Assembly (NCBI GenBank): GCA_964574355.1
Contig: CAZNMD010000003.1
Coordinates: 5,316-69,315, forward strand
Length of the DNA stretch: 64,000 nt
Direction of reading: 5' to 3'
Source of the DNA: an uncultured Candidatus Saccharibacteria bacterium
GTDB lineage: Bacteria; Patescibacteriota; Minisyncoccia; Phycocordibacterales; DSPV01
Of this stretch, positions 8,042 to 39,244 are shown one piece after another. The notes beneath the pieces were generated by a model. That model was not told the DNA's origin, made no database searches, and saw nothing but the letters and a program-made list of their open reading frames with translations. Both the position numbers and the translations under genes were made by a program. The stretch's first letter is position 1; each line of letters opens with the position of its first letter.

Positions 8042-9409
8042 GTGCACCATTCGAAAATTAAAATTATTGTTCATGAACGTCCTCATTGGGATGAAATCGT
8101 CGGAGTTTGGTTGGCACAAACGTATGGTGGTGGGAAGTATGTCGGCCTCGACAAGGCTGCAATTCGTTTTGTCGAAGAAGATCCTCTCGGTGGGGACAAT
8201 CGGTTTGACTCCGAAGGGTTGTATCCGATCGGTACCGGCAAGGGTCGGTGCGACGATAAGGGTCCGGATGGTAAGCGCAAGGCGGGAAAGTGTTCTGCTT
8301 TGCTTGTTGCCGAAGATCTTGGTGTCGAAAAAAACCAAGAACTCATTCTCCTTCTTGAGGAAACGCTTCATTGCGATACCCAAAAGGGGGTTCGTCTCAC
8401 ACAGCTCGCCGAAGCTTTGAAGTTGATAATGCTCAAGTTCGGTACGGCTGGTCAGGAGTTTTTTTTACAGCACTCGTTGACAGTTGTTGGTGCCATTGTG
8501 GCTCAGTGCGCGAATCGCTACACCGCCGGTCGTGGCGAGAAGGGAGCCCTCGACTTCTTTGAGGGTTTCGTCCGGAACGGAAGGTTTACCGACCAACGAA
8601 TTATCGGGTTTATGCGTAAGCAGCTCCAAATCGGAGCAGCTCATACAGAGTCGGTCACGGAGATCGACTTTGTTCTTCGGGCGATGCAGCGAAATGGTAC
8701 GTCTCTCAAAGATACCACCGAGTTTGCTCGCTTCATTCTCCAACACGTCTATCAGGTGCAGGAACACATTCGTGACCTTTCTCAGGTTATCAAGCCTGAC
8801 AACAAAACTCATCGAGGTCAAAACTCGAGGGAGTTTGTCACTACCGGCTTGTTTGATGATTGTGAGAGGCCGGTTCGTTTCATCATCGTTGATAGCGACG
8901 ATCCGTTTGCTCACCGTGCAACATCGTACCTTCGGTATGATGTTCATGTCATCAGGCAGTCAACGGGCAATGTTCAGGTCTTTGCCAACACATCGAAGGG
9001 TGTCAAACTTCATGTGGTGGCGGCGATGATTCGGTGGCTCGAGCTGCCGAGTGATCAAAAGACTGGATTCCTCGATGAGCTCGAGGACGCCGGAATAATT
9101 GAAGGTGTGTCACACTGGTACTACTTCGTGGAGGCACAGATGCTGTTTAATGGTTCGCAAACTCACACAGGTGTGCGACCGACAGAACTTGCTGGTCAGG
9201 CGATCGTTGATGTTCTTCGCCACGCGTTTCACCCACGTGAAATTGGGAAGTGGAAGGCGTTGCATGGAAAGGGTCGCTTTTCGCGTCAGGTTCGGTGTCC
9301 GGAAAGGTCGGTCAAGTCCAATGTCTCGGTCCAGTCTGCCGGGAAGGATTGGCCGACGGATATCGCCGCTGATCTCGAAAGGATTTGCAGTGGTCTCAAC
9401 GGAGAGTAA
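8042..9409 (+). CDS. Hypothetical 455-aa protein with no recognisable family. It is the G+C-rich 'island A'.
   Basis: Long uninterrupted ORF with a GTG start 7 nt after a GAAAGG RBS. It is visibly richer in GC codons than its neighbours. Several long overlapping ORFs on both strands were judged to be by-products of the GC richness. Confidence 0.6.
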   Translation: MHHSKIKIIVHERPHWDEIVGVWLAQTYGGGKYVGLDKAAIRFVEEDPLGGDNRFDSEGLYPIGTGKGRCDDKGPDGKRKAGKCSALLVAEDLGVEKNQELILLLEETLHCDTQKGVRLTQLAEALKLIMLKFGTAGQEFFLQHSLTVVGAIVAQCANRYTAGRGEKGALDFFEGFVRNGRFTDQRIIGFMRKQLQIGAAHTESVTEIDFVLRAMQRNGTSLKDTTEFARFILQHVYQVQEHIRDLSQVIKPDNKTHRGQNSREFVTTGLFDDCERPVRFIIVDSDDPFAHRATSYLRYDVHVIRQSTGNVQVFANTSKGVKLHVVAAMIRWLELPSDQKTGFLDELEDAGIIEGVSHWYYFVEAQMLFNGSQTHTGVRPTELAGQAIVDVLRHAFHPREIGKWKALHGKGRFSRQVRCPERSVKSNVSVQSAGKDWPTDIAADLERICSGLNGE

Positions 9410-11852: not shown

Positions 11853-12794
11853 CTACGAGCCGCGATTGTAAATGACGACGAGATTTCTCATGGCTTTTTC
11901 TGCGGGTGTTTTACCACGAGCACTTGAGTGCCACATAGCTTCGCCGGTATCTGCGTAGGTGTCACCAAAAGTATCGATTTCATCATTAGCAATCTGACCT
12001 TCAGGGACGCCATGGTTGGCAAATTGCGTCCGAATGATTGCCGGTAGGCAGATTCCCCCGAATGCATTTGGGGCAAGTACACAGTAGTCGCCCAGTCGCT
12101 GGAAGTGCGCAATCAATTTCCGATTGGTGACTCCGTACTTTTGGTCAGTGGGTCGGTGGAAAAAATGTTCTCCACCGATACCGCACGTGATGAACACCTC
12201 AAGGTCTTGTGCGTGTTCGTTCCACTCAAAGAATTTGCACATAATTCCGTCGACAACGCTTTCGTGTGGTCGACTTGGCGTACCTGTTTCCAGGCGTGTT
12301 CGATCAACCAAACAATCTCGTCCAGCGTGTGCGGCGATAACTTTGCCACTAACACGAGATCGAGCAATGATGGTCGGACAATCTGCCGATGCGAGCATCA
12401 TATATTTTCCTCGCGGAATTTCACAACCATCAGCGCTTACGCCGCGGTAGATTTTTACTCCTTTACGTGGAGGCAGAGTAATTTTTTCGTGTGATAGGTC
12501 AATCTGGCCTTGATACACTTCAGTCAGTTCGTTGGGTGTGCAGATACGCGCGTTGAAGTCTGAAGGGCGGGGTGCATAGATCGAAGTTCGATCGCCGCCG
12601 CCAAATAAGGCGTTGATCAAGGAGTACGCCGAGCATTTCGCAACACCCGCGTTGTTTTTGAGTTCGGCAATGCTCCAGTCAGTTTGTCCGTCATTTCGCC
12701 CGCACAAAGTGACTTCAACGGGGCTCGTTCGGGTTCCATCACCAAACAGAGTGAAAACCCGAGTCGGTCTTGCTAATTCGATGTCCGTGTTCAT
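11853..12794 (-). CDS. YfiH/PgeF-like (Cu-oxidase_4 / DUF152) purine-nucleoside-phosphorylase / peptidoglycan-editing-factor family protein. It is the G+C-rich 'island B'.
   Basis: 313 aa. …SADC-PTIIARSRVSGKVIA-AHAGRD… matches the family signature ADC-x15-AHAGWRG with identical spacing. GC-rich codons. Confidence 0.5.
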   Translation of the reverse strand: MNTDIELARPTRVFTLFGDGTRTSPVEVTLCGRNDGQTDWSIAELKNNAGVAKCSAYSLINALFGGGDRTSIYAPRPSDFNARICTPNELTEVYQGQIDLSHEKITLPPRKGVKIYRGVSADGCEIPRGKYMMLASADCPTIIARSRVSGKVIAAHAGRDCLVDRTRLETGTPSRPHESVVDGIMCKFFEWNEHAQDLEVFITCGIGGEHFFHRPTDQKYGVTNRKLIAHFQRLGDYCVLAPNAFGGICLPAIIRTQFANHGVPEGQIANDEIDTFGDTYADTGEAMWHSSARGKTPAEKAMRNLVVIYNRGS

Positions 12795-17304: not shown

Positions 17305-19287
17305 ATGTCGGCTATAATAGAGATGAATATGGATGGGAACCCTATTTGTTATTTTGCTGAAACAGATGCGCGTAATAAGCGTGTAAAGTTTGGCATAAAA
17401 GAAAGAGATCGTACACGCCATATGTACGTCATTGGAAAGACGGGTATGGGTAAATCAACCTTGCTTGAAAATATGGCAATTCAAGATATGCAGCGAGGTG
17501 ATGGTATTGCGTTTATTGATCCTCACGGAAAAACAGCAGACCTTCTTTTAGAGTATGTTCCTGAATCGCGCATTAAAGATGTTTTGTATTTTGCACCGTT
17601 TGATCTTGAGTACCCCATTTCTTTTAATGTGATGGAAGATGTCGGTATGGATAAGCGGCACTTGGTGGTTTCTGGTCTCATGAGTGCGTTTAAGAAAATT
17701 TGGCTCGATGCGTGGTCTGCCCGTATGGAGTACATATTGAGTAATATTCTTTTGGCACTTCTTGAATATCCTGGTTCAACAATTCTTGGAGTGAATCGTA
17801 TGCTTGCTGATAAGGATTATCGCAAGAAGGTTGTTGAAAACGTGAAGGATGTATCAGTTCGAGCATTTTGGCTTGATGAGTTTGCAAAGTATGGTGATCG
17901 ATATATGCAAGAGGCGGGAGCAGCAATTCAAAATAAAGTTGGTCAATTTGTAAGTAATCCGCTGATTCGTAATATTATCGGTCAGCCACAATCAACATTT
18001 GATTTACGAGCAATGATGGATCAGAGAAAGATTATCATTGTGAATCTTTCAAAAGGTCGGGTTGGTGAACAGAACGCAAATCTTTTGGGTAGTATGTTTG
18101 TGACCAAGTTGTATCTTGCGGCAATGTCTCGTGCTGATTTAAGTGATGCTGCACTTGCTCGTTCGCCAAATTTTAATTTGTATGTGGATGAGTTTCAATC
18201 GTTTGCTAATGAGTCCTTTGCAAACATTCTTTCTGAGGCTCGCAAATATCGTCTTTCTTTAACGATTGCCCATCAATACATTGAACAAATGTCGGAAGAA
18301 GTTCGAGCGGCGGTATTTGGAAACGTGGGGACGATGGTTGTGTTTCGTGTGGGTGCATATGATGCTGAAATTCTTGAGAAGGAATATGCTCCACGATTTA
18401 CTGCTGAAGATATTGTAAATCTTGGTTTCGCTCAGATTTATTTGAAACTCATGATTGATGGTGTTACTTCGCCGCCATTTTCTGCAACAACATTGCCGCC
18501 ACTTGAAAAGGCGCCGGTTTCTTTTCGCGATGATGTTATTGAATGGACAAGACGAACCTATGCAAGAAATCGTGCAGAGGTTGAAGTTGATATTCGTACC
18601 TGGAGTGAAAATGAGCGACCAGCTGAAGGATCGCATGACGCGAAGCGAAAACCTCAACCGTCCCGTGGAGTTTCTGATAGAGCGCCAGATGCCCGTGTAC
18701 GAACCGCAGAAGTTCGAAGACAGCCTATCCCTCCTCGTGAATATCGTTCGGTTCAAGTCCCTGAACTTTCTGGGAGCGCGGTTTCAAAAGCTACTCCTCC
18801 TGTTGTTGAGAGCCCGGTTGTGGCACCAAATGTGTCATTAACACCTTTACCAAAAATAGAAGGTGGGGAAGGAGGTTTTGTTTCTCTTAAAGATCTTAAG
18901 TCTGGGGCGGTAGTTTCTACATCCGTCTCTCCTCGTGCTCCTAAAATAATTTCAAGAGAAAAACCTGTTATATCTCAACAGCCCTCTGTTCGTGTTGATC
19001 AAGGTTCAAAAAAGGAAACGTTGGTTGGTGCTCAAGATCAAAAATCGGTTCTTCGAGACGCTCTTGCATCAGTATTGAAGAATAACGCTCCAATAGATCA
19101 TCAGCATCAACCATCAGGACATGTTCAAAAAAATCAATCTGTACATTCAACAACCTCGGGTCATCATCGGCCACATCCTCCCCAGGTTAGTTCTTCTGGA
19201 GAAGTGCATGAAACTAAGTCAAAGGCAGGAGAAGTTTCTGTTGATGAAGTAAGGCGTATTTTAGATATTCCTCGACCAAAAGAATGA
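17305..19287 (+). CDS. Soluble FtsK/TraD/VirD4-like (type-IV-coupling-protein-like) P-loop ATPase with a C-terminal low-complexity tail of about 250 aa.
   Basis: Walker A VIGKTGMGKST. Walker B NLYVDEFQSF. …RKYRLSLTIAHQYIEQM… resembles the TrwB_AAD_bind / TraG-D_C family. There are no N-terminal TM segments. The tail is P/S/V/K/R-rich. Confidence 0.6.
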   Translation: MSAIIEMNMDGNPICYFAETDARNKRVKFGIKERDRTRHMYVIGKTGMGKSTLLENMAIQDMQRGDGIAFIDPHGKTADLLLEYVPESRIKDVLYFAPFDLEYPISFNVMEDVGMDKRHLVVSGLMSAFKKIWLDAWSARMEYILSNILLALLEYPGSTILGVNRMLADKDYRKKVVENVKDVSVRAFWLDEFAKYGDRYMQEAGAAIQNKVGQFVSNPLIRNIIGQPQSTFDLRAMMDQRKIIIVNLSKGRVGEQNANLLGSMFVTKLYLAAMSRADLSDAALARSPNFNLYVDEFQSFANESFANILSEARKYRLSLTIAHQYIEQMSEEVRAAVFGNVGTMVVFRVGAYDAEILEKEYAPRFTAEDIVNLGFAQIYLKLMIDGVTSPPFSATTLPPLEKAPVSFRDDVIEWTRRTYARNRAEVEVDIRTWSENERPAEGSHDAKRKPQPSRGVSDRAPDARVRTAEVRRQPIPPREYRSVQVPELSGSAVSKATPPVVESPVVAPNVSLTPLPKIEGGEGGFVSLKDLKSGAVVSTSVSPRAPKIISREKPVISQQPSVRVDQGSKKETLVGAQDQKSVLRDALASVLKNNAPIDHQHQPSGHVQKNQSVHSTTSGHHRPHPPQVSSSGEVHETKSKAGEVSVDEVRRILDIPRPKE

Positions 19288-20738
19288 TAAAAATTTTGTT
19301 TATAACTACATTCGTTATATATGCGTTTACGCAAAACGCATATGCCCAGGTAGTGATAAACGAGATTATGTATGATGTTGCGGGAGGTGACGATGGCCAC
19401 GAATGGATTGAGGTAAAAAATACAGGTACTACGGCTATCGATCTTTCCTTGTATCGCTTTTTTGAGGCGGGAGTACATCATAAACTTAGTGCTGTTTTAG
19501 GTACGACTCTTTCTTCTGGCGGGTATGCAGTTATTGCTGATGATGCAGTAAAATTTCAAATTGATTTTCCTTCTTTTTCCGGAGTTCTTTATGACAGTTC
19601 ATTTTCTCTTTCAAATGTGGGGGAAACACTTTCTATAAAGCTTGACGATAGTGTTATTGATTCTGTGAGTTATGTTCCGAGTGAGTTAGCTAATGGTACT
19701 GGTGCCACACTTCAGAAGGTTGGATCGTCTTTTGTTTCGCTTGCTGCTACTCCTGGAGCTTCATCTGATGCAGGGAATCCTGTTGTGAATGAACCACCTG
19801 GGACCGAAGATCCAAATACTCCAAGTAATCAATCTTCACAAAATTCATCGAGTGGAAGTGGAGGAACAGTAGCTGATCCTGATCCGACTCGAATTGTTCC
19901 AGATGCGGGGGCGGATCAAACTGTGATTGCGGGCGCGCCTGTCCTTATGTCTGGTAAAGCCAGTATTGGAGGAAAACCAGTTTCTGATACAGCACGCTTT
20001 TTGTGGAATTTCGGAGACGGCGCCACGTTTATTGGCCGTACCACAAATCATGTGTATCGATCGCCTGGACGATATGTGGTCTCGCTTTCTGTGTCTTCTG
20101 GTGAAACGAGTGCTACCGATATGCTTACCATCACTGTTGTTGAATCGCCAATATCGATTGCGTCAACGGTTCCTGGTCCGGAGGGGTATGTCTCCTTATT
20201 CAATGCCTCGAAAGGTGTTGTTGATATTTCAACATGGTATCTTCAGGTTAAAGAACAGATATTTGTTTTTCCTCCCGGTACGTTTATTGCTGGTTCATCG
20301 GTTGTGCGTTTTGATGCGGCTATAACCAGGCTTTCTTTCGCTTCACCTCAAGAAGTGTTTTTGCGTTTTCCAAATGGAAAAGAGGCTTCTGTTGGTATAC
20401 AGGATGTTGTTACCCCAAAAGCTGCTGTTTCTGTTCAGGCGACCCCAAAACCTCACGTTGATCAATCAAAAATGACAACAGCTCCTGAAAAGGGTCTTTC
20501 AAAGAGCCTTGTTGTGGAAGCTGTTCCAGAAACACGCAAAGAAGAGGATGTTACAGATAAACTTTTACAAGGGGCATTAGTGGAAGAAACGATTGATCAG
20601 GGTCAAACACAAAAGAGTGGGATGTTTTGGTGGTATGGTGCACTTGTACTGGTTTTGGCTCTTGGCACGGTCGGAGTGATTTTGATTGAGAAAAAGAAGC
20701 CAGTGGACGAGTTTGAGATAATTGAGGCAGACGAGTAG
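19284..20738 (+). CDS. Secreted lamin-tail-domain (LTD)–PKD–LTD-like protein with a C-terminal TM anchor.
   Basis: Signal peptide MIKILFITTFVIYAFTQNAYA. LTD motif VVINEIMYDVAGGDDGHEWIEVKNTGTTAIDLS. PKD motif FLWNFGDGATF…HVYRSPGRY. C-terminal TM WWYGALVLVLALGTVGVILI. Its start overlaps the upstream stop (ATGA). Confidence 0.65.
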   Translation: MIKILFITTFVIYAFTQNAYAQVVINEIMYDVAGGDDGHEWIEVKNTGTTAIDLSLYRFFEAGVHHKLSAVLGTTLSSGGYAVIADDAVKFQIDFPSFSGVLYDSSFSLSNVGETLSIKLDDSVIDSVSYVPSELANGTGATLQKVGSSFVSLAATPGASSDAGNPVVNEPPGTEDPNTPSNQSSQNSSSGSGGTVADPDPTRIVPDAGADQTVIAGAPVLMSGKASIGGKPVSDTARFLWNFGDGATFIGRTTNHVYRSPGRYVVSLSVSSGETSATDMLTITVVESPISIASTVPGPEGYVSLFNASKGVVDISTWYLQVKEQIFVFPPGTFIAGSSVVRFDAAITRLSFASPQEVFLRFPNGKEASVGIQDVVTPKAAVSVQATPKPHVDQSKMTTAPEKGLSKSLVVEAVPETRKEEDVTDKLLQGALVEETIDQGQTQKSGMFWWYGALVLVLALGTVGVILIEKKKPVDEFEIIEADE

Positions 20739-21887: not shown

Positions 21888-21906
21888 TAGTGGTGACAAT
21901 GAGTTA

Positions 21907-21935
21907 TTGACATAGCATTTTTTACATGCTATTAT
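21907..21935 (+). promoter_or_regulatory. Near-consensus sigma-70 promoter TTGACA-N17-TATTAT for the GC-rich 'island C'.
   Basis: Read directly. Confidence 0.5.
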
Positions 21936-22025
21936 TCAAACCAGATAGTTTTCGTTTTGCTGTTTGAAACCTCAACAAAGTCACGTCCTAAAAGGTTGTG
22001 GCGCAATGAAGAAAGGTCGGTAATC

Positions 22026-22664
22026 ATGAGTGAGACAATGACAGAGGCTGAAATTCGGGCGATGTTGCAGACCGAGTTCGATCAGGTCTTTGTAAGGCCA
22101 CCGAGTAGTTTGCCGTTTTTCCCGCATGTGGTCGTGTTTTTGTCGGCGCCTCAGGATGTTACTCGCCCTACAGAAGACGACGCTCACGAAATGAGTGCCG
22201 AGAATCTTGTCCGGGCCATGTACTCGGTGTTGCTGCTCGAATCCGAAGGTGGCAGTAACTCCACCATCCTTTTGAATGGTGAGACTGAGCAGTTGCCGGC
22301 AATGAAGCGTCTCGTTGAAGGTTTCGGTTGCAGACAGTACTTGCCTATCAATTCCGGCGATCGTGGTAAGAGCCACACGGGAACTCAGTTCGTTCAGTTG
22401 GCCAACTGGCTTCGAGAGCAACCTTTCAATTCCACGGTTGGAATTGTTTTGGTGACCAGTCAGTACCACGTGCCTCGGGTCCGCCGGTATGCTGCCAAGC
22501 ATATCTCTCGTGGGGATTACAAATGGCAGGTTGTCGGCGTGCCGAACGATGTCGGTCTCTATGATCGAGAGAAAAAGGTTGCCGGCGAAATCGACCGGAT
22601 CATCAAGTACTCGAAGGATGGAACTTTCGACCTCTTCCCGGACCTCGGTGAAGGGAATTCGTAA
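22026..22664 (+). CDS. DUF218 / YdcF-ElyC-SanA-like protein. It is the G+C-rich 'island C'.
   Basis: …LLNGETEQLPAMKRLVEGFG…INSGDRGKSHTGTQFVQLANWL…VGIVLVTSQYHVPRVRRY… matches the DUF218 pattern (E…S.nT.eNA…VTS.yHm.RA). The ORF extends to 21957, but the ATG at 22026 (MSETM…) is preferred. Confidence 0.45.
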   Translation: MSETMTEAEIRAMLQTEFDQVFVRPPSSLPFFPHVVVFLSAPQDVTRPTEDDAHEMSAENLVRAMYSVLLLESEGGSNSTILLNGETEQLPAMKRLVEGFGCRQYLPINSGDRGKSHTGTQFVQLANWLREQPFNSTVGIVLVTSQYHVPRVRRYAAKHISRGDYKWQVVGVPNDVGLYDREKKVAGEIDRIIKYSKDGTFDLFPDLGEGNS

Positions 22665-22687
22665 CGTGTCCTTCAATTAGAAATCGA

Positions 22688-22734
22688 ACAGCTCGCGTGT
22701 ATGCCAAATGTGGTGTACCGCGAGCTGTTTTTTT
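22688..22734 (+). terminator. Terminator located between convergent genes.
   Basis: ACAGCTCGCG…CGCGAGCTGT 10-bp stem followed by TTTTTTTATTTTTTT. Confidence 0.6.
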
Positions 22735-23782
22735 ATTTTTTTAAATATCGAAGTGTGCGGGCGATTGTATCGCGTATGCCACTTACTATTATTTTGAACC
22801 GATACAGCTCATTCGCTCCGTCTATAGTATAGCGAGGTAAACAAAAAAGATTTTTCGTATGCTCTGCTGTTCCGGGGATGGTTGTTAACGCAGCCTCATA
22901 TGTATTTTCTTTGAGAATGCGATAGGTGGTTGGGGTGAAATCATTACTTCCGCCGTTTGGATAGGCAAAAATACGTAAAGGGTTTTTTGTGTTTCGTTTT
23001 ACCGTTGCTGTTGAGTTTTGTATTTCCTTTCTAGCTTCTTCTTCTGATAGGTTTGATAGCACAGGATGAGAAACTGTGTGCGCCGCAAAAGTCATGCCGT
23101 TTGTCTCCATTTCTTGTATGTCTGGCCAGCTCATCGGTTCGTAGCCACTTCCTATAAGATTATCTGCCAGATTTTTTCCTGTTTTTCTAATCAGTTCATC
23201 AATAATCATGTCGACTTGTTGTGGAGGTAGCCTTTTAATTTTTGAACGTATTGTTTTATCTGCCTCTAGACGATTTTTTATTGTGTCGAGGGTAAAATGT
23301 TCTTTTCCTCCTTTTTGTTCCAAGGTGATATTTTTTTGTTCGGTTGTATTGATGGCATACTCGATTTGATCAACAGGAAGGGGAATATTCTTTTCAATAA
23401 AGTTAGTTGTTATAAAAAAAGTCGCAGGAACATTTTCTTTTTTAAGAATGGGGTAAGCTTCAGTAAAGTTGTTTTTATATCCGTCATCAAAGGTAATTGC
23501 GACCAAAGATCGAGAGAAAGGTTTTTTTGTGGCAACTGTTTCTACGAGTTCAGTAAGAGAAACAACGTCAAAGTTTTTTTTGAGATATATGAGGTGTTGC
23601 TCAAAAGCGCTTGGTGAAATGAATTTTTTTCTATAGTTAAAAATGCCACTTCCTTTTTGTGAGCTGACCCCGTGATATAAAAGAATAATCGCTTGTGGTT
23701 TTTTGAGTGATAGAATAAGGCGTGGGAGCCCTATAAAATCAATTATTCTCATGGCGATTGATATAAGTAATTTTGTGGACAT
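22733..23782 (-). CDS. Polysaccharide deacetylase (NodB homology / CE4) with an N-terminal TM helix.
   Basis: …LVAITFDDGYKNNFTEAYPILKKENVPATFFITTNFIE…. Confidence 0.8.
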   Translation of the reverse strand: MSTKLLISIAMRIIDFIGLPRLILSLKKPQAIILLYHGVSSQKGSGIFNYRKKFISPSAFEQHLIYLKKNFDVVSLTELVETVATKKPFSRSLVAITFDDGYKNNFTEAYPILKKENVPATFFITTNFIEKNIPLPVDQIEYAINTTEQKNITLEQKGGKEHFTLDTIKNRLEADKTIRSKIKRLPPQQVDMIIDELIRKTGKNLADNLIGSGYEPMSWPDIQEMETNGMTFAAHTVSHPVLSNLSEEEARKEIQNSTATVKRNTKNPLRIFAYPNGGSNDFTPTTYRILKENTYEAALTTIPGTAEHTKNLFCLPRYTIDGANELYRFKIIVSGIRDTIARTLRYLKK

Positions 23783-23873
23783 GAGTTAGTGGGTGAGTCC
23801 TTCTCTCTCGGTGGGTTCTATTATAGGATGAGAATTCTTAAAAAAGAATTGTTTGATGGTTCGTGGTTAACGT

Positions 23874-25610
23874 ATGCAACAGAATATACAAAAACGTGCA
23901 CCGGTGTTGGTTCTGGGAGATAGTATGCGAAGTACGCTCGCGGTTGTTCGATCGTTGGGGCGACGGGGTATTTCTGTGCATCTTGGTGTGTCTTACGTAA
24001 CCCTTTCTGTTACACGTTCCAAGTATGTGAGGCGTGTCATTGTATTACCCTCGGAGAAACACCACCGTTCTGCCTGGCTTCAGACGCTCCTTAAGATTGT
24101 CGAGGAGACGTCATACTCGCTCTTGATTCCGACGACTGAAGGGGTTGCGCTTCCGGTGATTGAAGACCAAAAAGTCATTGAGCCTTTTGTTCGCCTTGCC
24201 GTCCCTTCCTTTTCTTTGTTTGAAGAGACGTTTGATAAAAGAAAAACGGTCGAACTTGCAAAGGCTTCTAATGTCCCTTTTCCAAAAACAGCAATCATAG
24301 AAACAGAACAGATGTTGGAAGAAATTCTAGGAAAGGCAACATTTCCCCTTGTTATTAAACCAGCATTTTCAAAGAAAACGACCAAAGAAAACCAGGTTGG
24401 GCTGAGTGTGAGCGTTGCGAAAACGAAAGAGGAGGCTCGTGAACTGGCTTTGGTTCGATTACGTCAGGTGCCGGTTCTTTTTCAGGAGTATGTTGCAGGG
24501 GTTGGTGTTGGGCAAGAATTTTTGTGTGACAATGGAAAAATTCTTCTTTCATTTCAACATGAGCGAGTCCGAGAACAGTCAGGAAGTGGGGGAAGTACAT
24601 ATCGGGTGAGTGCTTCACTTCATCCAGGCATGCTAGAAGCGTCAAAGAAAATGCTTGAAAAGATTAACTGGACGGGGGTTGTTATGGTTGAGTATCGTTG
24701 GAATAAAGATACTGATTCTTTTTTTCTTATAGAGATTAATGGGAGGTTGTGGGGTTCGTTGCCGCTTCCAGTCGCTCTTTCGGTTGATTTTCCGTATGCC
24801 ATGTATTCTTTTTTTGTCGAAGGGAAAAAAGATTTTTCGGGAACGTATAAAACAGGAGTGTATGGGCGTGATGTTTTTTCCGATGTTCGTCTTTTGTTAA
24901 GGTTGTCACGTTCTTTGGGAGTCATGTTTTTGATGAAGGAATTTTTTGTTGCTTTTAGTCGGATTATGATGGGGCGCGAACGGTGGGATATGGTTGCTTT
25001 TGACGATATGTATCCTGCACTTAAAGAGACTATGCGAGTTGCTAAAAAAGAGTTTGAACAATTGAGTCGTGCTGTAGGTGTTGTGGTACGAAACAAGGTA
25101 CGTCGTTTATCGGTTACCAAGCGATTAAAAACCGAGTGTATTAATTCTCTTGCTGAGGCAAAAAATATTTTGTTTGTGTGTTATGGGAACGTTAACCGTA
25201 GTGTTTTCGCTGAGCAGTATACCCGAAGTATTCTTTCCGAAAAACAAAAAGAATTTTTTACAGTACGGTCGGCAGGAACAATTTCAAAAGAGGGCAGAGA
25301 GGCCTCTTTTGAGGCACAAGAAATCGCGAAAAAATATGGTGTGTCGCTCGATACACACCGTTCTGTTTCGGTTTCCCCAAAGATTATTGATGAAGCTGAT
25401 CTTATTTTTTATGTTGATACGAAAACTCGTAATGAATTGTTGAGTCGTTTTTCTGGAGCGGCAAAAAAAATGTATCCATTAAGTTTTCTTGCCAGTGACG
25501 TGCCGGAAGAAATTGATGATCCTTATGGTAAGGATAGTGATTACTTTAGAAGGGTATTTGATTATATAAAGAAGAGCGTTGATGCTTTGTATGTACATAT
25601 GAAGCCGTGA
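23874..25610 (+). CDS. Fusion protein: an N-terminal ATP-grasp ligase domain (about 420 aa) joined to a C-terminal low-molecular-weight protein-tyrosine-phosphatase domain.
   Basis: ATP-grasp end motif …FLIEINGRLWGS…. LMW-PTP P-loop ILFVCYGNVNRSVFAEQY (C-x5-R-S) and a DPYG general-acid motif. Confidence 0.7.
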   Translation: MQQNIQKRAPVLVLGDSMRSTLAVVRSLGRRGISVHLGVSYVTLSVTRSKYVRRVIVLPSEKHHRSAWLQTLLKIVEETSYSLLIPTTEGVALPVIEDQKVIEPFVRLAVPSFSLFEETFDKRKTVELAKASNVPFPKTAIIETEQMLEEILGKATFPLVIKPAFSKKTTKENQVGLSVSVAKTKEEARELALVRLRQVPVLFQEYVAGVGVGQEFLCDNGKILLSFQHERVREQSGSGGSTYRVSASLHPGMLEASKKMLEKINWTGVVMVEYRWNKDTDSFFLIEINGRLWGSLPLPVALSVDFPYAMYSFFVEGKKDFSGTYKTGVYGRDVFSDVRLLLRLSRSLGVMFLMKEFFVAFSRIMMGRERWDMVAFDDMYPALKETMRVAKKEFEQLSRAVGVVVRNKVRRLSVTKRLKTECINSLAEAKNILFVCYGNVNRSVFAEQYTRSILSEKQKEFFTVRSAGTISKEGREASFEAQEIAKKYGVSLDTHRSVSVSPKIIDEADLIFYVDTKTRNELLSRFSGAAKKMYPLSFLASDVPEEIDDPYGKDSDYFRRVFDYIKKSVDALYVHMKP

Positions 25611-25675
25611 TTTATTGAGGCGCAGTAAGAAGTTTTTTCTTTAATACATAACCTCTGATTTTTAGTATGATGGGT

Positions 25676-25711
25676 ATATGCGAATTTTGATTGCTACAGG
25701 GATTTATCCGC
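25676..25711 (+). repeat. Direct repeat, copy 1 (36 bp: atATGCGAATTTTGATTGCTACAGGGATTTATCCGC). It duplicates the start of the GT gene at 26816.
   Basis: Perfect 36/36 identity with 26814..26849. Confidence 0.9.
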
Positions 25712-25731
25712 TGGGTCATTTGGTTGCGTAA
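25678..25731 (+). pseudogene. Remnant 5' fragment of the glycosyltransferase gene (MRILIATGIYPLGHLVA*).
   Basis: The first 11 codons are identical to the GT gene at 26816. A stop follows after 17 codons. Confidence 0.45.
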
Positions 25732-25765
25732 ACTAATCAATACTTTCGTAACACTTCTTCCGGTG

Positions 25766-25795
25766 ATTGACATTTATATACATTTTATGCTATAA
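25766..25795 (+). promoter_or_regulatory. Consensus sigma-70 promoter TTGACA-N18-TATAAT for the GC-rich 'island D'.
   Basis: Both hexamers are perfect consensus. Confidence 0.55.
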
Positions 25796-25902
25796 TTAGC
25801 ATAGATTTTGGATAGGTCTAAAGGTCGATTATTTTGCCAAAGGCGAGATAAGGAAACAGACAGAGGATATGTCCGAAACAAAGAAAGGATAGGTTCATTG
25901 AT

Positions 25903-26619
25903 ATGAACGCGTCTGAATTCGGTTGTGGTCACGCTCATCAAGTTGCGATTACAGCAGCGAAAGCTGGCTGGGAGATCGCTGATTTCACAGCTCTTCAACA
26001 AAGTGAAGAACTTTGTCGAGTTGTCCTTGGAGTCATTCGAAACGGTGGTTTACCGACTGGACTCGGTTCTACTGAGGAGCAACTCGTTTCATGGAGAAAC
26101 TTCTACACGAAGTATTTCGGCATCGAATGTGGAGACATTAAAATCCCAACTCGCACTATCGGTTTCGACCGACTCATTGTTGTTCCGCAAGGGATCACAA
26201 TGAACCGGATCGTTGAGGTGGCGCGAAAGCAGATTGAGATTTCTCTCTATGTCGAAGATCTTGATGCAAACGTTCCGACCAACGACCGGGATCCGAAGAG
26301 TGGTGGCTATGCCATTTGGGTTCGCGAACGACAAGAAGCCGATGAGGAACTCAAAAACCTCTCAGCGATCGCACTCGCAGAGAAAAGTGTAAAAGGAATC
26401 ACACTTCTCGAACGCCTCCTTTACGGTTTCAAGTATTTTCTCGAGACCGAAAAGTGTCTCGACGAGACGAACTGGACACTGTGTTCAGGTTCCCGCGGTT
26501 TGGATGGCGATGTGCCGCGCGTGCGTTGGAATCCCGATGCTCGTTGCGTGGGGGTCTATTGGTCGTATCTGCGGGGTGCGCGTGTGTTCCTCCGTTCCCG
26601 TGCAGTTGTTACCTTGTAA
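25903..26619 (+). CDS. Hypothetical 238-aa protein with no recognisable family. It is the G+C-rich 'island D'.
   Basis: GGATAGG RBS 9 nt upstream of the ATG. GC-rich codons. Confidence 0.55.
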   Translation: MNASEFGCGHAHQVAITAAKAGWEIADFTALQQSEELCRVVLGVIRNGGLPTGLGSTEEQLVSWRNFYTKYFGIECGDIKIPTRTIGFDRLIVVPQGITMNRIVEVARKQIEISLYVEDLDANVPTNDRDPKSGGYAIWVRERQEADEELKNLSAIALAEKSVKGITLLERLLYGFKYFLETEKCLDETNWTLCSGSRGLDGDVPRVRWNPDARCVGVYWSYLRGARVFLRSRAVVTL

Positions 26620-26641
26620 CTTCTGCCTTGTTCTCTTCAAA

Positions 26642-26671
26642 CCCCTCGCGATCTGATCGCGAGGGGTTTTT
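26642..26671 (+). terminator. Strong terminator of island D.
   Basis: CCCCTCGCGA-tctga-TCGCGAGGGG followed by TTTTT. Confidence 0.8.
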
Positions 26672-26813
26672 CATGTAAAATAATATCGGTTGTGAAATTG
26701 GTCCATTATAGCGGAATAGTGATTCCTATCGGGGTATACTTATCTATCTTATTTAAGGAAAAAAGTTAGAAAAAGTATTTCGTGAAGCAGCTAGTTTCAT
26801 TGTATAGTAACTG

Positions 26814-26849
26814 ATATGCGAATTTTGATTGCTACAGGGATTTATCCGC
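26814..26849 (+). repeat. Direct repeat, copy 2. It lies at the true start of the GT gene.
   Basis: Identical to 25676..25711. Confidence 0.9.
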
Positions 26850-27826
26850 CAGAGGTTGGTGGGCCGGCACGATATGCGGCCGAACTTCAAAGGATATGGA
26901 AAAAAGAAGGTGATGTTGTTTTTGTTGCGGTGGCGAGCCGATTTAAGTGGCTGCCCTTTATTGTGCGACAGGTCGCCTTTTTTAAGTGGTGCATAGTAAA
27001 AGCAGTTCGGGCGAATGTTATTTTTGCTCTCGATACTTTTTCTGCCGCAGTACCGGCATTTTATGCCGCACGAATTTTAAGAAAACCCTTTGTTGTTCGT
27101 GTTGGGGGAGATTTTTTATGGGAAATGTATACTGAACGTACAAAAAAAGACATAACACTTAAAACATTTTGTGAAAATATTCCACATGATCTATCAATAA
27201 AAGAAAAAATTGTTTTTTATTTTATACGAAATATGCTTCGTGGCGCCTCTCGGGTGATATTTTCTGTTCCTTGGTATGAGACACTTGCAAAAAAAGCATA
27301 TGGGCCATTGAGAACCAGTAGTATTGTTGAAAATCCAAATGGTCCACGAGAACGTTCTTACGAACCGCAGAAAAAAGTGTTTCTTTTGGCTGGCAGAAAA
27401 ATGTTTTTAAAAAATGCTGATCGTTTTAGAAAAGCATTTGTGGAAGCGCAAAAACATAGTGATATTAGTTTTGTTGAGGATAGGGTTTCTCGAGAAAAAT
27501 ATATTGAACTATTAAAAACATGTTATGTGGTTGCGATTCCATCACTTTCTGAGGTGAGTCCAAATACCGCCCTTGATGCTATTCGTTTTGGTAAGCCAAT
27601 TATTTTAACAAAAGAGTGTGGATATGCTGAACGTTTTGGTGCGGCGGCAGTGTTGGTTGATCCATTAAGTGAGGTCTCAATTCGGTCTGCTATCGAGTTA
27701 TTGAGTTCATCTGTTGCGTATGCTGAGGCGGCGCGCGCCGCAGAAGCAATTTCTTGTACAAGAAATTTTGAAGAAGTGGCGTTAGAAATTCGCGGTATCA
27801 TAAAGGATATATGCGCGTTATCGTAA
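26816..27826 (+). CDS. Glycosyltransferase (GT-B, GT4-like).
   Basis: MRILIATGIYPPEVGGPARYAAEL…. Confidence 0.65.
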   Translation: MRILIATGIYPPEVGGPARYAAELQRIWKKEGDVVFVAVASRFKWLPFIVRQVAFFKWCIVKAVRANVIFALDTFSAAVPAFYAARILRKPFVVRVGGDFLWEMYTERTKKDITLKTFCENIPHDLSIKEKIVFYFIRNMLRGASRVIFSVPWYETLAKKAYGPLRTSSIVENPNGPRERSYEPQKKVFLLAGRKMFLKNADRFRKAFVEAQKHSDISFVEDRVSREKYIELLKTCYVVAIPSLSEVSPNTALDAIRFGKPIILTKECGYAERFGAAAVLVDPLSEVSIRSAIELLSSSVAYAEAARAAEAISCTRNFEEVALEIRGIIKDICALS

Positions 27827-28977
27827 TTGGTTCAGAGAGAAATTTGTTTAAAGAGGGAAGTGCTGCCCGAGAACGTATCGCGGGATACGGGGCGCTTTTT
27901 GAGGAACTTCACCTTATTGTTTTTACTGGGCGAGGATCTGAATTTAGAGAACAAAAAATTGCTGATAATGTATTTGTGTATCCGACACGATCATGGTCAC
28001 GCTTTTTTTATGTTTTTGACGCAAAGAACATTGCTCGTCGACTACGGCGTTCTTTTTCGACTCATCCGTTGAGCGACTCACGGGTTGTTGTTTCTGCACA
28101 GGATCCTTTTGAAGCTGGTCTTGTTGCAAGGCAAGTGGCATCTTTGTTTCCTGCCAAACTTCATCTCCAGATTCATACGGATTTTTTGTCACCCTATTTT
28201 GGTTCCTCTGTTCTTAATCGGACGCGAGTTGCTATTGCAAAGAGAATTTTACCGTTCGCCGATTCTGTGCGGGTAGTCTCGAAGACGATAGAACAAGGGC
28301 TTGTTGAGTCCGGTCTGGTTGATAAAGAGAAAATAAGAGTACTCCCAATTTATGTTGATGGTTCGACTTTTGATGAACATGTCGTTATTGATTCTGATAC
28401 TGATTTACGAAAAAAATTTCCTGAATATAAATTTATTGCCCTTATGGCTTCGCGTTTAGCTCCTGAAAAAGATATGGGGCTTGCGATTCGAGCTATTGGA
28501 AAATTAGCAAAAGAAAATCAACATATTGGTCTTGTTTTAGTGGGTGAGGGGCCAGAAAAGCACCGTCTCATGAAACTCGCTGGTACCTGCGGAGCGGGAA
28601 AAAATGTTCGATTTCTTCCTTGGCAAAGACATTTAGGGAGTCTCTATAAGACGGCTAATGTATTTATCCTTACTTCTTCATTCGAGGGCTATGGAATGGC
28701 GCTGGTTGAAGCTGCTCTTTCGGGAACTCCTATTATTTCAACAAAGGTTGGTATCGCCGTTGAATTAAAAGATGGTAAGGAGGCTCTTTTGTGTGATGTT
28801 GGAGACGAAGAGTGTTTTCTTAAAAAAATGCGTCTTTTAGTGCATGATCATTCCCTGCGACAACTTCTTAAAGCAAATGCTCGTTTGTGGATGCTTTCTC
28901 ATTTGCCAGATAAAGAGACGTATCTCAGGCAGTATAAAGAATCATTTGAGCTTGCCTTTACTATAGGGGCCAGGTGA
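27811..28977 (+). CDS. Glycosyltransferase family 4.
   Basis: …SSFEGYGMALVEAALSGTPIISTKVG…. It overlaps the upstream gene by 16 nt. Confidence 0.75.
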   Translation: MRVIVIGSERNLFKEGSAARERIAGYGALFEELHLIVFTGRGSEFREQKIADNVFVYPTRSWSRFFYVFDAKNIARRLRRSFSTHPLSDSRVVVSAQDPFEAGLVARQVASLFPAKLHLQIHTDFLSPYFGSSVLNRTRVAIAKRILPFADSVRVVSKTIEQGLVESGLVDKEKIRVLPIYVDGSTFDEHVVIDSDTDLRKKFPEYKFIALMASRLAPEKDMGLAIRAIGKLAKENQHIGLVLVGEGPEKHRLMKLAGTCGAGKNVRFLPWQRHLGSLYKTANVFILTSSFEGYGMALVEAALSGTPIISTKVGIAVELKDGKEALLCDVGDEECFLKKMRLLVHDHSLRQLLKANARLWMLSHLPDKETYLRQYKESFELAFTIGAR

Positions 28978-38503: not shown

Positions 38504-39244
38504 CTATTGTGCCCACACCAGGCTCGGTTTCAGACCAGTAAAATCAGCTTCAGTTTGCATTGCGCGAATGAGATCAATACGTTGCTTGTCTCGTTTTGCC
38601 CGCATTGTCTCGTCGTCTTCAACCATTTGTTCAATCGGGTGAATGTAATCAACGGTAACAGAACCGATCGTCCAGCCCCTTTGAATCATATCGATCATCG
38701 GCACAAAAAGAATCTCCCAATTATCGCCGTGGCGACCGTTGTATCCTGCCATCAATTCCGCTGCTTTGCGGGTCATGATGCGAGGTCCCACCCACAGATC
38801 TAGGTCAGGTCGACCGGTAATGTTGGCTGCTTCCCAGTTTGCCCACACTTCACAGTAGTGCTGATATTGGGGGTAGTTCGTGAAGGTTTTTCGTCGTGGA
38901 ATAACGATCTCACACCCTTGGTTTACGAGGTGATTGATACAGGGTTGAAAGAGTGGCACCATCGGATGTTTTTCCGGTTCAAGCCAAATGATAGTGTCAG
39001 CTTCAGTTGAGAGGCCAAGATTTAGGCACTGGCGCCGCGAGTTTCCCATTCCTGGCTCTTTTTGACGATGAACAGTTGCGCCTCGAGCTGAAAGTTCATT
39101 CTCGATTTTCGGATCGGGTGATCCGTCTACCACAATGAGTGGATAGTTGGCTTTTCTCGCCTCTTCTGCGGTTTTGAGTGCCAATGTGGCACGCATGTCG
39201 TCGACGTTTGGTGAGAAAGTTGTTGTAACAAGGCAGACGCTCAC
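38504..39244 (-). CDS. GT-A-fold glycosyltransferase-like protein. It is the G+C-rich 'island E' and is the only minus-strand gene in this part of the cluster.
   Basis: …YPLIVVDGSPDP… (GT2-like DxD region). GTG start 6 nt after AAGGA. GC-rich codons. Confidence 0.4.
   Translation of the reverse strand: MSVCLVTTTFSPNVDDMRATLALKTAEEARKANYPLIVVDGSPDPKIENELSARGATVHRQKEPGMGNSRRQCLNLGLSTEADTIIWLEPEKHPMVPLFQPCINHLVNQGCEIVIPRRKTFTNYPQYQHYCEVWANWEAANITGRPDLDLWVGPRIMTRKAAELMAGYNGRHGDNWEILFVPMIDMIQRGWTIGSVTVDYIHPIEQMVEDDETMRAKRDKQRIDLIRAMQTEADFTGLKPSLVWAQ

Follow-up and report, generated by a model that had tools for sequence, protein, structure and literature searches.

How does a glycosyltransferase (GT) gene come to have its own first codons repeated more than a kilobase upstream? 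Within the window, the whole 64,000-nucleotide stretch analysed here, the exact 36-mer ATATGCGAATTTTGATTGCTACAGGGATTTATCCGC occurs only twice, with an offset of 1138 nt between the copies (Table 1). The original prediction had read this perfect direct repeat as the footprint of an insertion, and the two copies are indeed identical at 36/36 positions. No third copy was found in the window at up to three mismatches, and a 36-mer repeat appeared in 0 of 100 shuffled controls, with a chance expectation of none. The downstream copy had been taken for the authentic GT start, which is where the orthologues all begin too, and the 17-codon remnant described upstream is likewise present (MRILIATGIYPLGHLVA followed by a stop, 25678-25731), opened by the upstream copy. 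Outside the repeat borders identity collapses, to 19/60 positions before and 16/60 after.

Table 1. Features of the GT locus. Positions refer to the window unless a relative is named.
Feature	Position	Strand	Description
Spacer "leader 2", ATP-grasp/LMW-PTP gene to upstream repeat	25611..25675	+	L002-type spacer
Upstream 36-nt copy	25676..25711	+	2 nt, then GT codons 1-11, then 1 nt; displaced GT 5' stub
Inserted DGR cassette remnant	25712..26795	+	left end, promoter, 5'UTR, target, hairpin, deletion scar, RT 3' end
Cassette unit			TGGGTCATTTGGTTGCGTAA...GCAGCTAGTTT
Sigma-70-type target-gene promoter	25767..25796	+	TTGACA-18-TATAAT, TG extension, 12/12 consensus matches; same 30-mer in L001
DGR target (variable protein) gene, 238 aa	25903..26619	+	variable N-terminus, conserved core, C-terminal C-type-lectin-like domain
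Variable region (VR) of target	26487..26607	+	121 nt, ungapped vs TR; conserved IMH-like 3' end
TR in relatives	L085 180-300; L001 1146-1266		
GC-rich hairpin and T-run	26639..26669	+	15-nt perfect arms
Deletion scar	26703..26717	+	~1.56 kb of intact relative gone: TR, avd, RT codons 1 to ~280
DGR RT remnant	26718..26807	+	last ~29 codons (~281-309) and TAG stop 26805-26807
Native-type GT leader	26796..26815	+	TTCATTGTATAGTAACTGAT; precedes downstream GT copy
Downstream 36-nt copy	26814..26849	+	functional GT start
GT4-family glycosyltransferase gene, 336 aa, insertion target	26816..27826	+	Pfam Glycos_transf_1; orthologues P0122-P0127
Second-lineage local leader			TATTGTATAGTTGAGCT

Comparison with relatives, the close ones all from Logan assemblies, indicates that the segment between the copies is a genuine insertion, because L002 has the uninterrupted locus with one copy of the segment. 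This deacetylase – ATP-grasp/PTP – GT arrangement, which the original prediction had proposed to look for and which bears out its insertion claim, is an empty site from the window's own lineage; the inserted cassette is absent, and the same upstream spacer, of the leader 2 type, directly precedes the GT gene. The window aligns with L002 at 23034-25709 (L002 1-2664) and again at 26814-28253 (L002 2631-4070), and the last 24 nt of leader 2 (TCTGATTTTTAGTATGATGGGTAT) match the L002 sequence upstream of the GT ATG. In the window, the ATP-grasp/PTP gene and the GT gene flank the insert.

Two leader types are present at the locus, the L002-type spacer before the upstream copy and a native leader motif before the downstream copy. 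The motif, TTTT[C/T]ATTGTATAG, stands before the GT gene and right after the upstream terminator in L003, L086 and L088, which are free of any diversity-generating retroelement (DGR), and a variant occurs in L087. L088 is an empty site of a second lineage and has the native leader. The left repeat border is the point where the two unrelated leaders meet conserved coding sequence, at -2 of the ATG, and the right border of the duplicated segment is the stub-cassette junction, ...TTTATCCG[C/T] abutting TGGGTCATTTGGTTGCGTAA, which is also the left junction in L001. When the two lineages are compared, no 34-nt interval of the GT gene is better conserved than the repeat segment (rank 1 of 984).

The insert itself is a degenerate remnant of a Patescibacteria DGR, and its identity as a DGR is solid. 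L001 and L085 contain the same cassette carrying a TR, and the intact order is promoter, target with C-terminal VR, hairpin, TR, avd and RT, directly upstream of the conserved GT4 gene. The window cassette is collinear with L001 31-1004 plus 1993-2052 and with L085 1-38 plus 1638-1700; its right boundary is approximate, within the last RT codons, where the native GT leader motif begins. Against the L085 TR, 19 of the 21 mismatches in the window VR fall at template adenines (binomial P ~1e-10), as do 22 of 25 against the L001 TR and 16 of 18 between the L001 VR and its own TR, with binomial P values of 1e-7 to 1e-10 across comparisons. The same adenine-biased TR/VR pattern is seen in 27/28 family loci. 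Between the window and L001 the VRs differ at 23/121 positions, which indicates past activity only.

The 238-aa ORF belongs to no family in Pfam, PHROGs or NCBIfam; its structure model has a CLec fold and matches three solved DGR variable proteins, and the ORF is read as the DGR target gene with a C-type-lectin fold. The L085 RT is a 309-aa protein (RVT_1, E 4.6e-23) with LPLGNVTSQLFANVYL and YCDD motifs; it does not reach the cut-offs set for group II intron, retron and Drt models. Between TR and RT, L085 encodes a 92-aa ORF matching bAvd (E 3.5e-5) and DivGenRetAVD (E 1.2e-5), both below the curated cut-offs. The hairpin downstream of VR may act as an intrinsic terminator and/or as the DGR target-site hairpin; an 86-nt stretch that includes it has a folding energy of -34.5 kcal/mol (z = -8.5), and its surroundings (26608-26702) are 98% identical to L001. 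Rfam gave no credible RNA in 25400-27000, and the cassette left end and 5'UTR have a counterpart in 0 of the 79 family loci.

The window copy is not a functional DGR, as RT codons ~281-309 alone survive. Read against the intact L085, a deletion of ~1.56 kb separates window 26665-26702, which corresponds to L085 1-38, from the point where homology picks up again (L085 ~1600-1638, window 26718-26751). The avd ORF is absent, and a search of the 64-kb window found neither a TR nor another RT through which the VR could still be diversified. In a tblastn search with the L001 RT, residues 147-174 of the called 174-aa product match 26718-26804 (E 3.5e-6), and over the last 14 RT codons the window and L085 are identical at 40/41 nt. 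L001 is a second, independently deleted copy, having lost 606 nt at an ATTTT microhomology. What the window retains is a target gene, intact and promoter-driven but orphaned, and its VR bears the adenine-specific imprint of past diversification; among the loci of this target family that could be decided, 21/56 are in this orphan-target state. The "complete expression unit" of the original prediction is thus correct as to promoter, 238-aa ORF and hairpin, but the unit is a decayed DGR and not an anonymous one. The end of the RT gene at 26718-26804 had been overlooked there.

Base composition had also been used to single out this segment as one of several GC-rich islands. The target lies ~11 GC points above its flanks in 24/25 loci; a high GC content characterises this DGR target family as a whole and does not prove foreign origin. 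No homology was found among the five GC-rich islands, of which at least B and C are also resident and conserved in relatives. GC content was accordingly rejected as evidence of foreign origin, and in practical terms a GC-rich "island" in this family should not be taken as a sign of recent foreign arrival.

The cassette also occurs at the orthologous GT start in the second, distantly related lineage, and the two cassettes are related horizontally. GT identity between the lineages is about 66% (65.7%, L089 versus the window), and third-codon identity in two host genes is 36-47%; the target gene is 83% identical between cassettes, with a third-codon identity of 69.6%, and the non-coding cassette parts are 93-98% identical, whereas the host leaders cannot be aligned beyond the motif. 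Leader plus repeat of L001/L085 is 93% identical to L088, and the L001 stub equals the L089 GT start at 30/30 positions. In each of the two lineages, the stub is the local GT allele: both L001 copies have the derived CGTGTATTGA, and both window copies the ancestral CGAATTTTGA.

The second-lineage locus is composed of L001 (SRR26372208), L085 (ERR4450739) and L089, three separate samples joined by ~44 nt of near-identical sequence only. L001 starts inside the repeat, and inclusion of the leader in the second-lineage duplication is read solely from Logan contig break points; a 2681-bp contig probably covers the repeat-to-repeat span only. Pattern scans for the hairpin and for the stub-cassette junction returned 0 matches in JGI metagenome contigs, as did the junction in IMG/VR. 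In exact searches, neither the target nor the GT protein of the window matched a contig, and the best match among the GTDB representatives scanned was 48%.

We consider it probable that the cassette spread horizontally, entered by recombination at the short conserved 5' end of the GT gene without encoding a recombinase, and subsequently decayed. The recombination route would proceed as follows. Incoming DNA bearing its own copy of the GT-start segment would recombine at the opening ~34 nt of the GT gene, which are highly conserved, perhaps also using the conserved leader motif where the native leader is present. Either a Campbell-type (single-crossover, "ends-in") topology or a homology-facilitated illegitimate join would leave the segment on both sides, because the incoming DNA carried its own copy. 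The upstream copy would become a dead 11-codon stub and the downstream copy a regenerated gene start, in line with the regeneration that the original prediction envisaged, the incoming DNA having brought a fresh GT start and its own leader. Later, the direct repeats could delete the cassette precisely, restoring the empty site, or release a circle able to re-insert; the empty sites of sister genomes agree with such events without being diagnostic of them. In the window, the ~1.56 kb deletion removed TR, avd and most of the RT.

Several observations fit recombination at the GT 5' end. The intact cassette encodes target, TR, avd and RT only, and a recombinase or transposase gene is absent from it, which extends to the intact form what had been observed in the window, where terminal inverted repeats are also lacking at the cassette ends. 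As Campbell-type integration predicts, the duplicated segment is the segment shared by donor and recipient. The mechanism has a precedent in T6SS and Rhs arrays, whose displaced gene ends have been proposed to arise by homology-facilitated illegitimate recombination with a one-sided anchor (PMC5361080). Against this reading, a simple Campbell crossover joining segments of 85-88% identity should yield chimeric copies, so gap repair or later gene conversion has to be added to arrive at a pair of local type; either process, drawing on the recipient, may have made the two copies identical, or the event may be recent. A length of 34 nt also lies at the lower limit for RecA-dependent exchange. The duplication is not general to these DGRs, since comparable flanking duplications were found in 0 of 24 other family cassettes (exact matches of at least 13 nt plus blastn, 24-28 cassettes), and a family-wide trait was rejected on these grounds.

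A bolder reading, which we raise tentatively as a possibility, treats the bare DGR cassette (target, TR, avd and RT, ~2.6 kb) as a small mobile module that encodes no recombinase, homes to the 5' end of the conserved cell-surface GT gene in different Patescibacteria and on each occasion makes a duplication of ~35-50 nt of local sequence, either through some dedicated mechanism (an enzyme acting in trans or its own RT/Avd) or through efficient short-homology capture. If true, "evolvability cassettes" would pass from one genome to another with no need of phages, plasmids or ICEs.

Integration at an att-like site, as the original prediction suggested, would require a tyrosine or serine recombinase acting in trans to join a circular cassette to the chromosomal GT start, generating attL and attR. 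Such a site would account for the same position in two divergent lineages with an identical left junction and for the perfect flanking copies, and the lack of a recombinase in the cassette has precedent in IMEX-type elements, which have none of their own and on which XerCD acts in trans. However, no recombinase gene is seen in the cassette or adjacent to it, the 36-mer is without the dyad symmetry typical of core sites, and the left border falls exactly where the two unrelated leaders give way to conserved coding sequence, as plain homology predicts. Site-specific exchange would also keep donor sequence on one side, whereas both copies are the local allele, and the other 24 family cassettes have no such repeats. 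The identical core at both junctions and the one-copy empty sites L002 and L088 are equally predicted by plain homologous recombination. Overall, the presence of the cassette at this gene start in another, divergent lineage agrees with the suggested site, but a dedicated att/integrase system is unsupported and appears unlikely; short-homology recombination accounts for the data equally well or better.

We regard a transposition-like or target-primed insertion as improbable. Under this model a staggered cut would be filled in, possibly with participation of the DGR RT, leaving a long target-site duplication (TSD) of 36 to ~50 nt. In both lineages the sequence beyond the unit TGGGTC...GCTAGTTT looks entirely local, and this formally defines a TSD; the cassette does encode an RT, and non-LTR retroelements make duplications of variable, sometimes considerable, length. 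Nevertheless, an RNA transcribed from the promoter would lack the promoter itself, which is internal to the unit, and close relatives (83-98% identical) occur at one site only among the loci examined. The window duplication ends at -2 of the ATG, where the leaders differ, and a flanking duplication accompanies no other family cassette. Adenine-biased substitution is absent outside the VR, where differences are ordinary transitions, so mobilisation of the whole cassette through copying by the mutagenic RT was rejected. A transposon was rejected as well, there being neither terminal inverted repeats nor a transposase and the 36-nt duplication being bounded by the limit of homology.

A single ancient vertical insertion, with repeats homogenised by gene conversion and empty sites created by repeat-mediated deletion, is similarly doubtful. 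It would explain the left junction common to both lineages and the concerted change of the two copies to CGTGTATTGA in L001 as against CGAATTTTGA in the window, and precise cassette deletion is possible via the direct repeats. The divergence contrast already disfavours it, with third-codon identity far higher in the target than in flanking host genes, and with near-identical non-coding cassette DNA beside host leaders that cannot be aligned beyond the motif.

An assembly artefact, in which strain variants were joined as a chimera at the 36-mer, is very improbable. The source is a MAG contig, and repeats of this size can mislead short-k assemblies, but an error private to the window is unlikely on sequence grounds because two other assemblies share its junctions, L001 the stub-cassette (left) junction and both L001 and L085 the right junction of cassette, leader and GT. 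The L001, L085 and L089 contigs also break at the repeat, as a real repeat predicts. Finally, an old tandem GT duplication with an almost wholly decayed upstream copy, which the start of that copy at the GT ATG might suggest, is refuted: 25712-26813 has no nucleotide or translated similarity to the GT gene, no extended homology exists beyond the 36-nt repeat, the content is a DGR, and an empty site exists.

The locus offers a rare full series of states of one chromosomal DGR: each of the two lineages has an empty site, one cassette is intact, and two copies have decayed independently. DGRs travel on phages and conjugative elements; here a cassette has landed at one and the same gene start in genomes in which the flanking genes have almost reached synonymous saturation. 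Small-genome Patescibacteria can evidently gain, then lose, a hypermutation system, and a normal-looking, promoter-driven surface-protein gene remains.

Among known systems, the cassette resembles the DGRs of CPR/Patescibacteria, which form clade 2 of Roux et al. 2021 (PMC8144416), the prototype being Mtd/TR/Avd/bRT of Bordetella phage BPP-1. Shared features are a target with C-terminal VR and C-type-lectin fold, a hairpin downstream of VR, a TR ~0.25-0.4 kb downstream, TR/VR mismatches specific to adenines and an RT with an SQ motif; the avd match is weak. In contrast to those DGRs, the window has lost the TR, avd and RT machinery and kept the target, no model in Pfam, PHROGs or NCBIfam covers the target family, and a duplication of the neighbouring gene start flanks the cassette, which 24 other members lack. 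The stand-alone target with no RT or TR nearby recalls orphan or remote DGR targets and degenerate DGRs, from which it differs in that decay can be read directly, via the near-identical intact L085 and the separately deleted L001.

DGRs of mobile elements, such as phages and the Bacteroides ICEs at tRNA-Lys (bioRxiv 10.1101/2024.11.15.621889), likewise transfer target, TR and RT as a cohesive unit, whereas the present cassette appears to be a bare ~2.6-kb unit with conjugation, phage and integration genes absent around it. Integrative elements at gene ends (tRNA att sites, IMEX at dif) share the flanking repeats, the restored gene end and the recurrent site; in our locus no integrase was found, core-site architecture is lacking, and the border is an ordinary limit of homology. 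The displaced ends of Campbell-type Rhs, CDI and T6SS arrays (PMC5361080) similarly arise from an incoming conserved gene end that leaves a stub and a regenerated copy, with no need of an element recombinase. From these arrays the locus is distinguished by a 5' anchor of only ~34 nt in place of a long conserved 5' or 3' region, by its DGR cargo, and by two copies that both carry the recipient allele.

The 36-nt segment ATATGCGAATTTTGATTGCTACAGGGATTTATCCGC occurs in exactly two copies in the window, at 25676-25711 and 26814-26849, with no further match there at up to three mismatches and none in 100 dinucleotide-preserving shuffles. As originally predicted, these direct repeats flank the GC-rich ORF termed island D, the downstream copy is the authentic start of a 336-aa GT4 glycosyltransferase (GT) gene, and the upstream copy opens a remnant ORF; the claimed promoter, 238-aa ORF and terminator-like hairpin are all present between them. 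Identities just outside the copies fall to 19/60 before and 16/60 after, such that similarity stops sharply at both borders, and the insert shows no nucleotide or translated similarity to the remainder of the GT gene. An old tandem duplication of the GT gene, the alternative raised alongside the original prediction, is ruled out because no homology extends past the repeat.

Features of the window and of related Logan contigs (window coordinates unless a contig is named)
Feature	Position	Remark
TraG/TrwB-like coupling ATPase (DUF87/T4SS-DNA_transf), then LTD/PKD-domain protein	17305-20738	
ATP-grasp + C-terminal low-molecular-weight phosphotyrosine phosphatase fusion	23874-25610	578 aa; conserved in L002
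ORF of upstream repeat copy	25678-25731	reads MRILIATGIYPLGHLVA*
Promoter TTGACA-N18-TATAAT	25767-25796	12/12, TG extension
238-aa ORF between repeat copies	25903-26619	
Hairpin	26639-26669	15-nt perfect arms + T-run
RT remnant	26718-26804	last ~29 codons; stop 26805-26807
GT4 glycosyltransferase	26816-27826	336 aa; start is downstream repeat copy
Other GC-rich ORFs	8042-9409; 11853-12794(-); 21957-22664; 38504-39244(-)	
TR of intact cassette	L085 180-300	
Deletion in L001	L001 1390-1394 / L085 429-1034	loses part of avd + RT N-terminus

The 238-aa ORF has no family in Pfam, PHROG or NCBIfam, and among its more than 511 homologues all those with a source name are hypothetical proteins of Patescibacteria MAGs. 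The closest, P0002 (81% identical by alignment), lies on Logan contig L001, which opens with the same junction as the window between the stub, the displaced copy of GT codons 1-11, and the insert (...TTTATCCGT joined to TGGGTCATTTGGTTGCGTAA) and, besides the ORF, has the window's hairpin and an identical promoter. Past the hairpin, L001 carries a 121-nt near-copy of the ORF 3′ end, which is a template repeat (TR), followed by a reverse transcriptase (RT) gene, and it ends with ...TAGTTGAGCT ATGCGTGTATTGA, the GT start. A second Logan contig, L085, holds an intact version in the order hairpin, TR, avd ORF, RT, leader and GT start. Its 309-aa RT (RVT_1) has the motifs LPLGNVTSQLFANVYL and YCDD, and its avd ORF weakly matches Avd models from profile position ~21 onward; this putative avd ORF (L085 316-594, minus strand) runs antiparallel to the target and RT genes. 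The window variable region (VR, 26487-26607) and the L085 TR mismatch at 21 positions, and TR adenines account for 19 of these (binomial P ~1e-10); for the L001 VR against its own TR, 16 of 18 mismatches are at adenines. Mismatches fell overwhelmingly at TR adenines in 27/28 family loci checked, and an RT gene is present on 35 of 79 target-family loci from GTDB genomes, typically ~0.7 kb downstream of the target. The C-terminal domain of the AlphaFold model (pLDDT 88) matches FGE-type C-type-lectin folds, and the model also matches three solved variable proteins of diversity-generating retroelements (DGRs), namely TvpA (2y3c), Mtd (1yu0) and TaqVP (5vf4). The TR/VR adenine pattern, the RT and TR in relatives and the modeled C-type-lectin fold therefore identify island D as a DGR target gene and the insert as a DGR cassette. 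The L001 TR (1146-1266) and the L085 TR differ at four positions, all G/C in L085 and A/T in L001, and at these sites the window VR has the L085 bases; the TR itself therefore drifts. The ~105-nt 5′ UTR of the cassette has no Rfam match.

Window positions 26665-26702 correspond to L085 1-38, and the next homologous stretch is the last ~29 RT codons; the ~1.56 kb missing comprises the TR, avd and RT codons 1 to ~280, and no TR or RT was found elsewhere in the 64-kb window. L001 is 99% identical to L085, but a separate deletion of 606 nt, at a 5-nt ATTTT microhomology, has occurred in it. This one cassette has thus decayed on two independent occasions. Stand-alone targets make up 21/56 decidable loci of the family, and the one in the window may be a relic, or else a remote target served by a DGR at another place in the genome. 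One contig, JAQUKX010000003.1, carries two family members (L024 and L032) ~19 kb apart; an RT accompanies only one of them on its locus, an arrangement that suggests remote targets served in trans. The source names of two further members, P0077 and P0099, share the locus-tag prefix NUV47, which suggests that both come from one MAG.

The uninterrupted locus anticipated in the original prediction exists in L002, a relative in the window's lineage whose GT matches that of the window at 86% protein and 84% nucleotide identity. There, deacetylase(-), ATP-grasp/LMW-PTP and GT follow one another and the repeat segment occurs once; window 23034-25709 aligns to L002 1-2664, and 26814-28253 to L002 2631-4070. 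In the window the L002 spacer precedes the upstream copy, and the downstream copy follows a leader, TTTT[C/T]ATTGTATAG, that contains the RT stop codon. The more distant DGR-free relatives L003, L086 and L088 share this motif, and L087 has a variant; the motif follows immediately on the preceding gene's terminator, and 8-9 nt separate it from the GT ATG. The two copies, with an L002-type spacer upstream and a native-type one downstream, therefore sit behind different leaders. The left edge of the repeat is the point where leader and coding sequence meet (±2 nt), and its right edge is the stub-cassette join, a geometry that would be expected if DNA comprising cassette, native leader and GT start had been joined at GT codon 11/12.

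The space upstream of the 336-aa GT (21888-26815, compared with L002, L003, L005, L086, L087 and L088) is a hotspot of gene-content change. The two GT genes adjoin each other in L005 and L087. In L003, L086 and L088 the space holds one small ORF or two, the DUF218-like island C among them. A block of deacetylase plus ATP-grasp/PTP occupies it in L002 and in the window, where island C and the DGR are present as well; of the seven relatives examined with GT context, L002 alone shares this block with the window. The coupling ATPase and LTD/PKD protein keep their position in L003, L005 and L088, and so belong to the core locus rather than to a mobile element.

Target genes average 11 GC points above their own flanks (24/25 family loci), and RT genes of the family are ~7 GC points poorer. 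GC-richness is therefore a trait of the target family and not in itself a sign of recent import. The five GC-rich islands (A-E) are unrelated to one another, the DGR target included. Islands B and C are residents rather than recent insertions, given that relatives have GC-rich homologues of both at matching positions; B weakly matches Cu-oxidase_4 and C DUF218, and A and E have no Pfam match.

A second lineage is represented by short Logan contigs from different samples. The leader and repeat of L001/L085 are 93% identical to those of L088 (leader alone, 20/20), which is this lineage's empty site. The GT of contig L089, 90% identical to that of L088, starts TAGTTGAGCT ATGCGTGTATTGATTGCTACAGGTATTTATCCGCC, a sequence equal to the L001 stub at 30/30 positions; this GT is only 65.7% identical to the window GT; neighboring genes reach 47-63%, and third-codon identity between window and second-lineage host genes is 36-47%. 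For the target gene, in contrast, identity between the window and L001 is 83%, and third-codon identity (69.6%) is on par with that of window versus L002 host genes (69.9%). Cassette non-coding identity is 93.5% across the promoter/5′ UTR (25712-25902) and 98% across the post-VR hairpin region (26608-26702). Because cassette identity (83-98%) lies far above that of host genes, the cassettes appear to be much younger than the split of their hosts, and the cassette has probably moved horizontally to occupy the orthologous GT start in both lineages. Non-coding parts are more conserved across lineages than target coding sequence outside the VR (83%), a pattern suggestive of constraint on cis elements, rapid evolution of the protein or mosaic history.

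The stub is the local allele in each lineage, both copies reading CGAATTTTGA in the window and CGTGTATTGA in L001. The repeat segment is the most conserved 34-nt GT window between the two lineages (rank 1/984) and among the most conserved across eight orthologues (0.81 versus a mean of 0.65). The most economical account is short-segment recombination of Campbell ("ends-in") topology or a homology-facilitated illegitimate join. Incoming DNA would bring its own GT-start copy, and insertion would leave this segment on both sides of the cassette. Once formed, the structure could pass between members of a lineage through ordinary recombination, in which the stub would serve as a short left arm and the GT gene as the right one, and the direct repeats would permit precise deletion of the cassette or release of a circle able to re-insert. 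Local-type sequence in both copies would call for gap repair templated by the recipient, or for gene conversion at a later stage. Transformable bacteria are documented to undergo homology-facilitated illegitimate recombination. The same process has been put forward to account for displaced gene ends in T6SS and Rhs arrays (PMC5361080).

The only rival with appreciable weight is a site-specific recombinase acting in trans. The original interpretation holds in part: the insertion is real, its site recurrent and the gene start regenerated. The insert is a decayed DGR, and its GC-richness is no evidence of foreignness; the intact cassette encodes no recombinase. Whole-cassette copying by the mutagenic RT is unlikely, since differences outside the VR lack adenine bias (CT 46, AG 32, AC 10, AT 10), and duplication as an intrinsic product of DGR biology is rejected because 24 other cassettes of the family have no flanking duplications. 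No appreciable weight attaches to a TSD-forming insertion (the insert has no terminal inverted repeats), to vertical descent with conversion, given the cassette and host-gene identities, or to an assembly artefact.

DGRs are abundant in Patescibacteria (PMC8144416) and orphan targets are common in this family, so the element itself is of an already known kind. Less usual is its readable history, which takes in empty sites, one intact copy and two that have decayed. [quoted passage not shown] Unusual here is the evidence that a bare DGR cassette of ~2.6 kb, with no phage or ICE around it, reached the same gene start in two divergent genomes.
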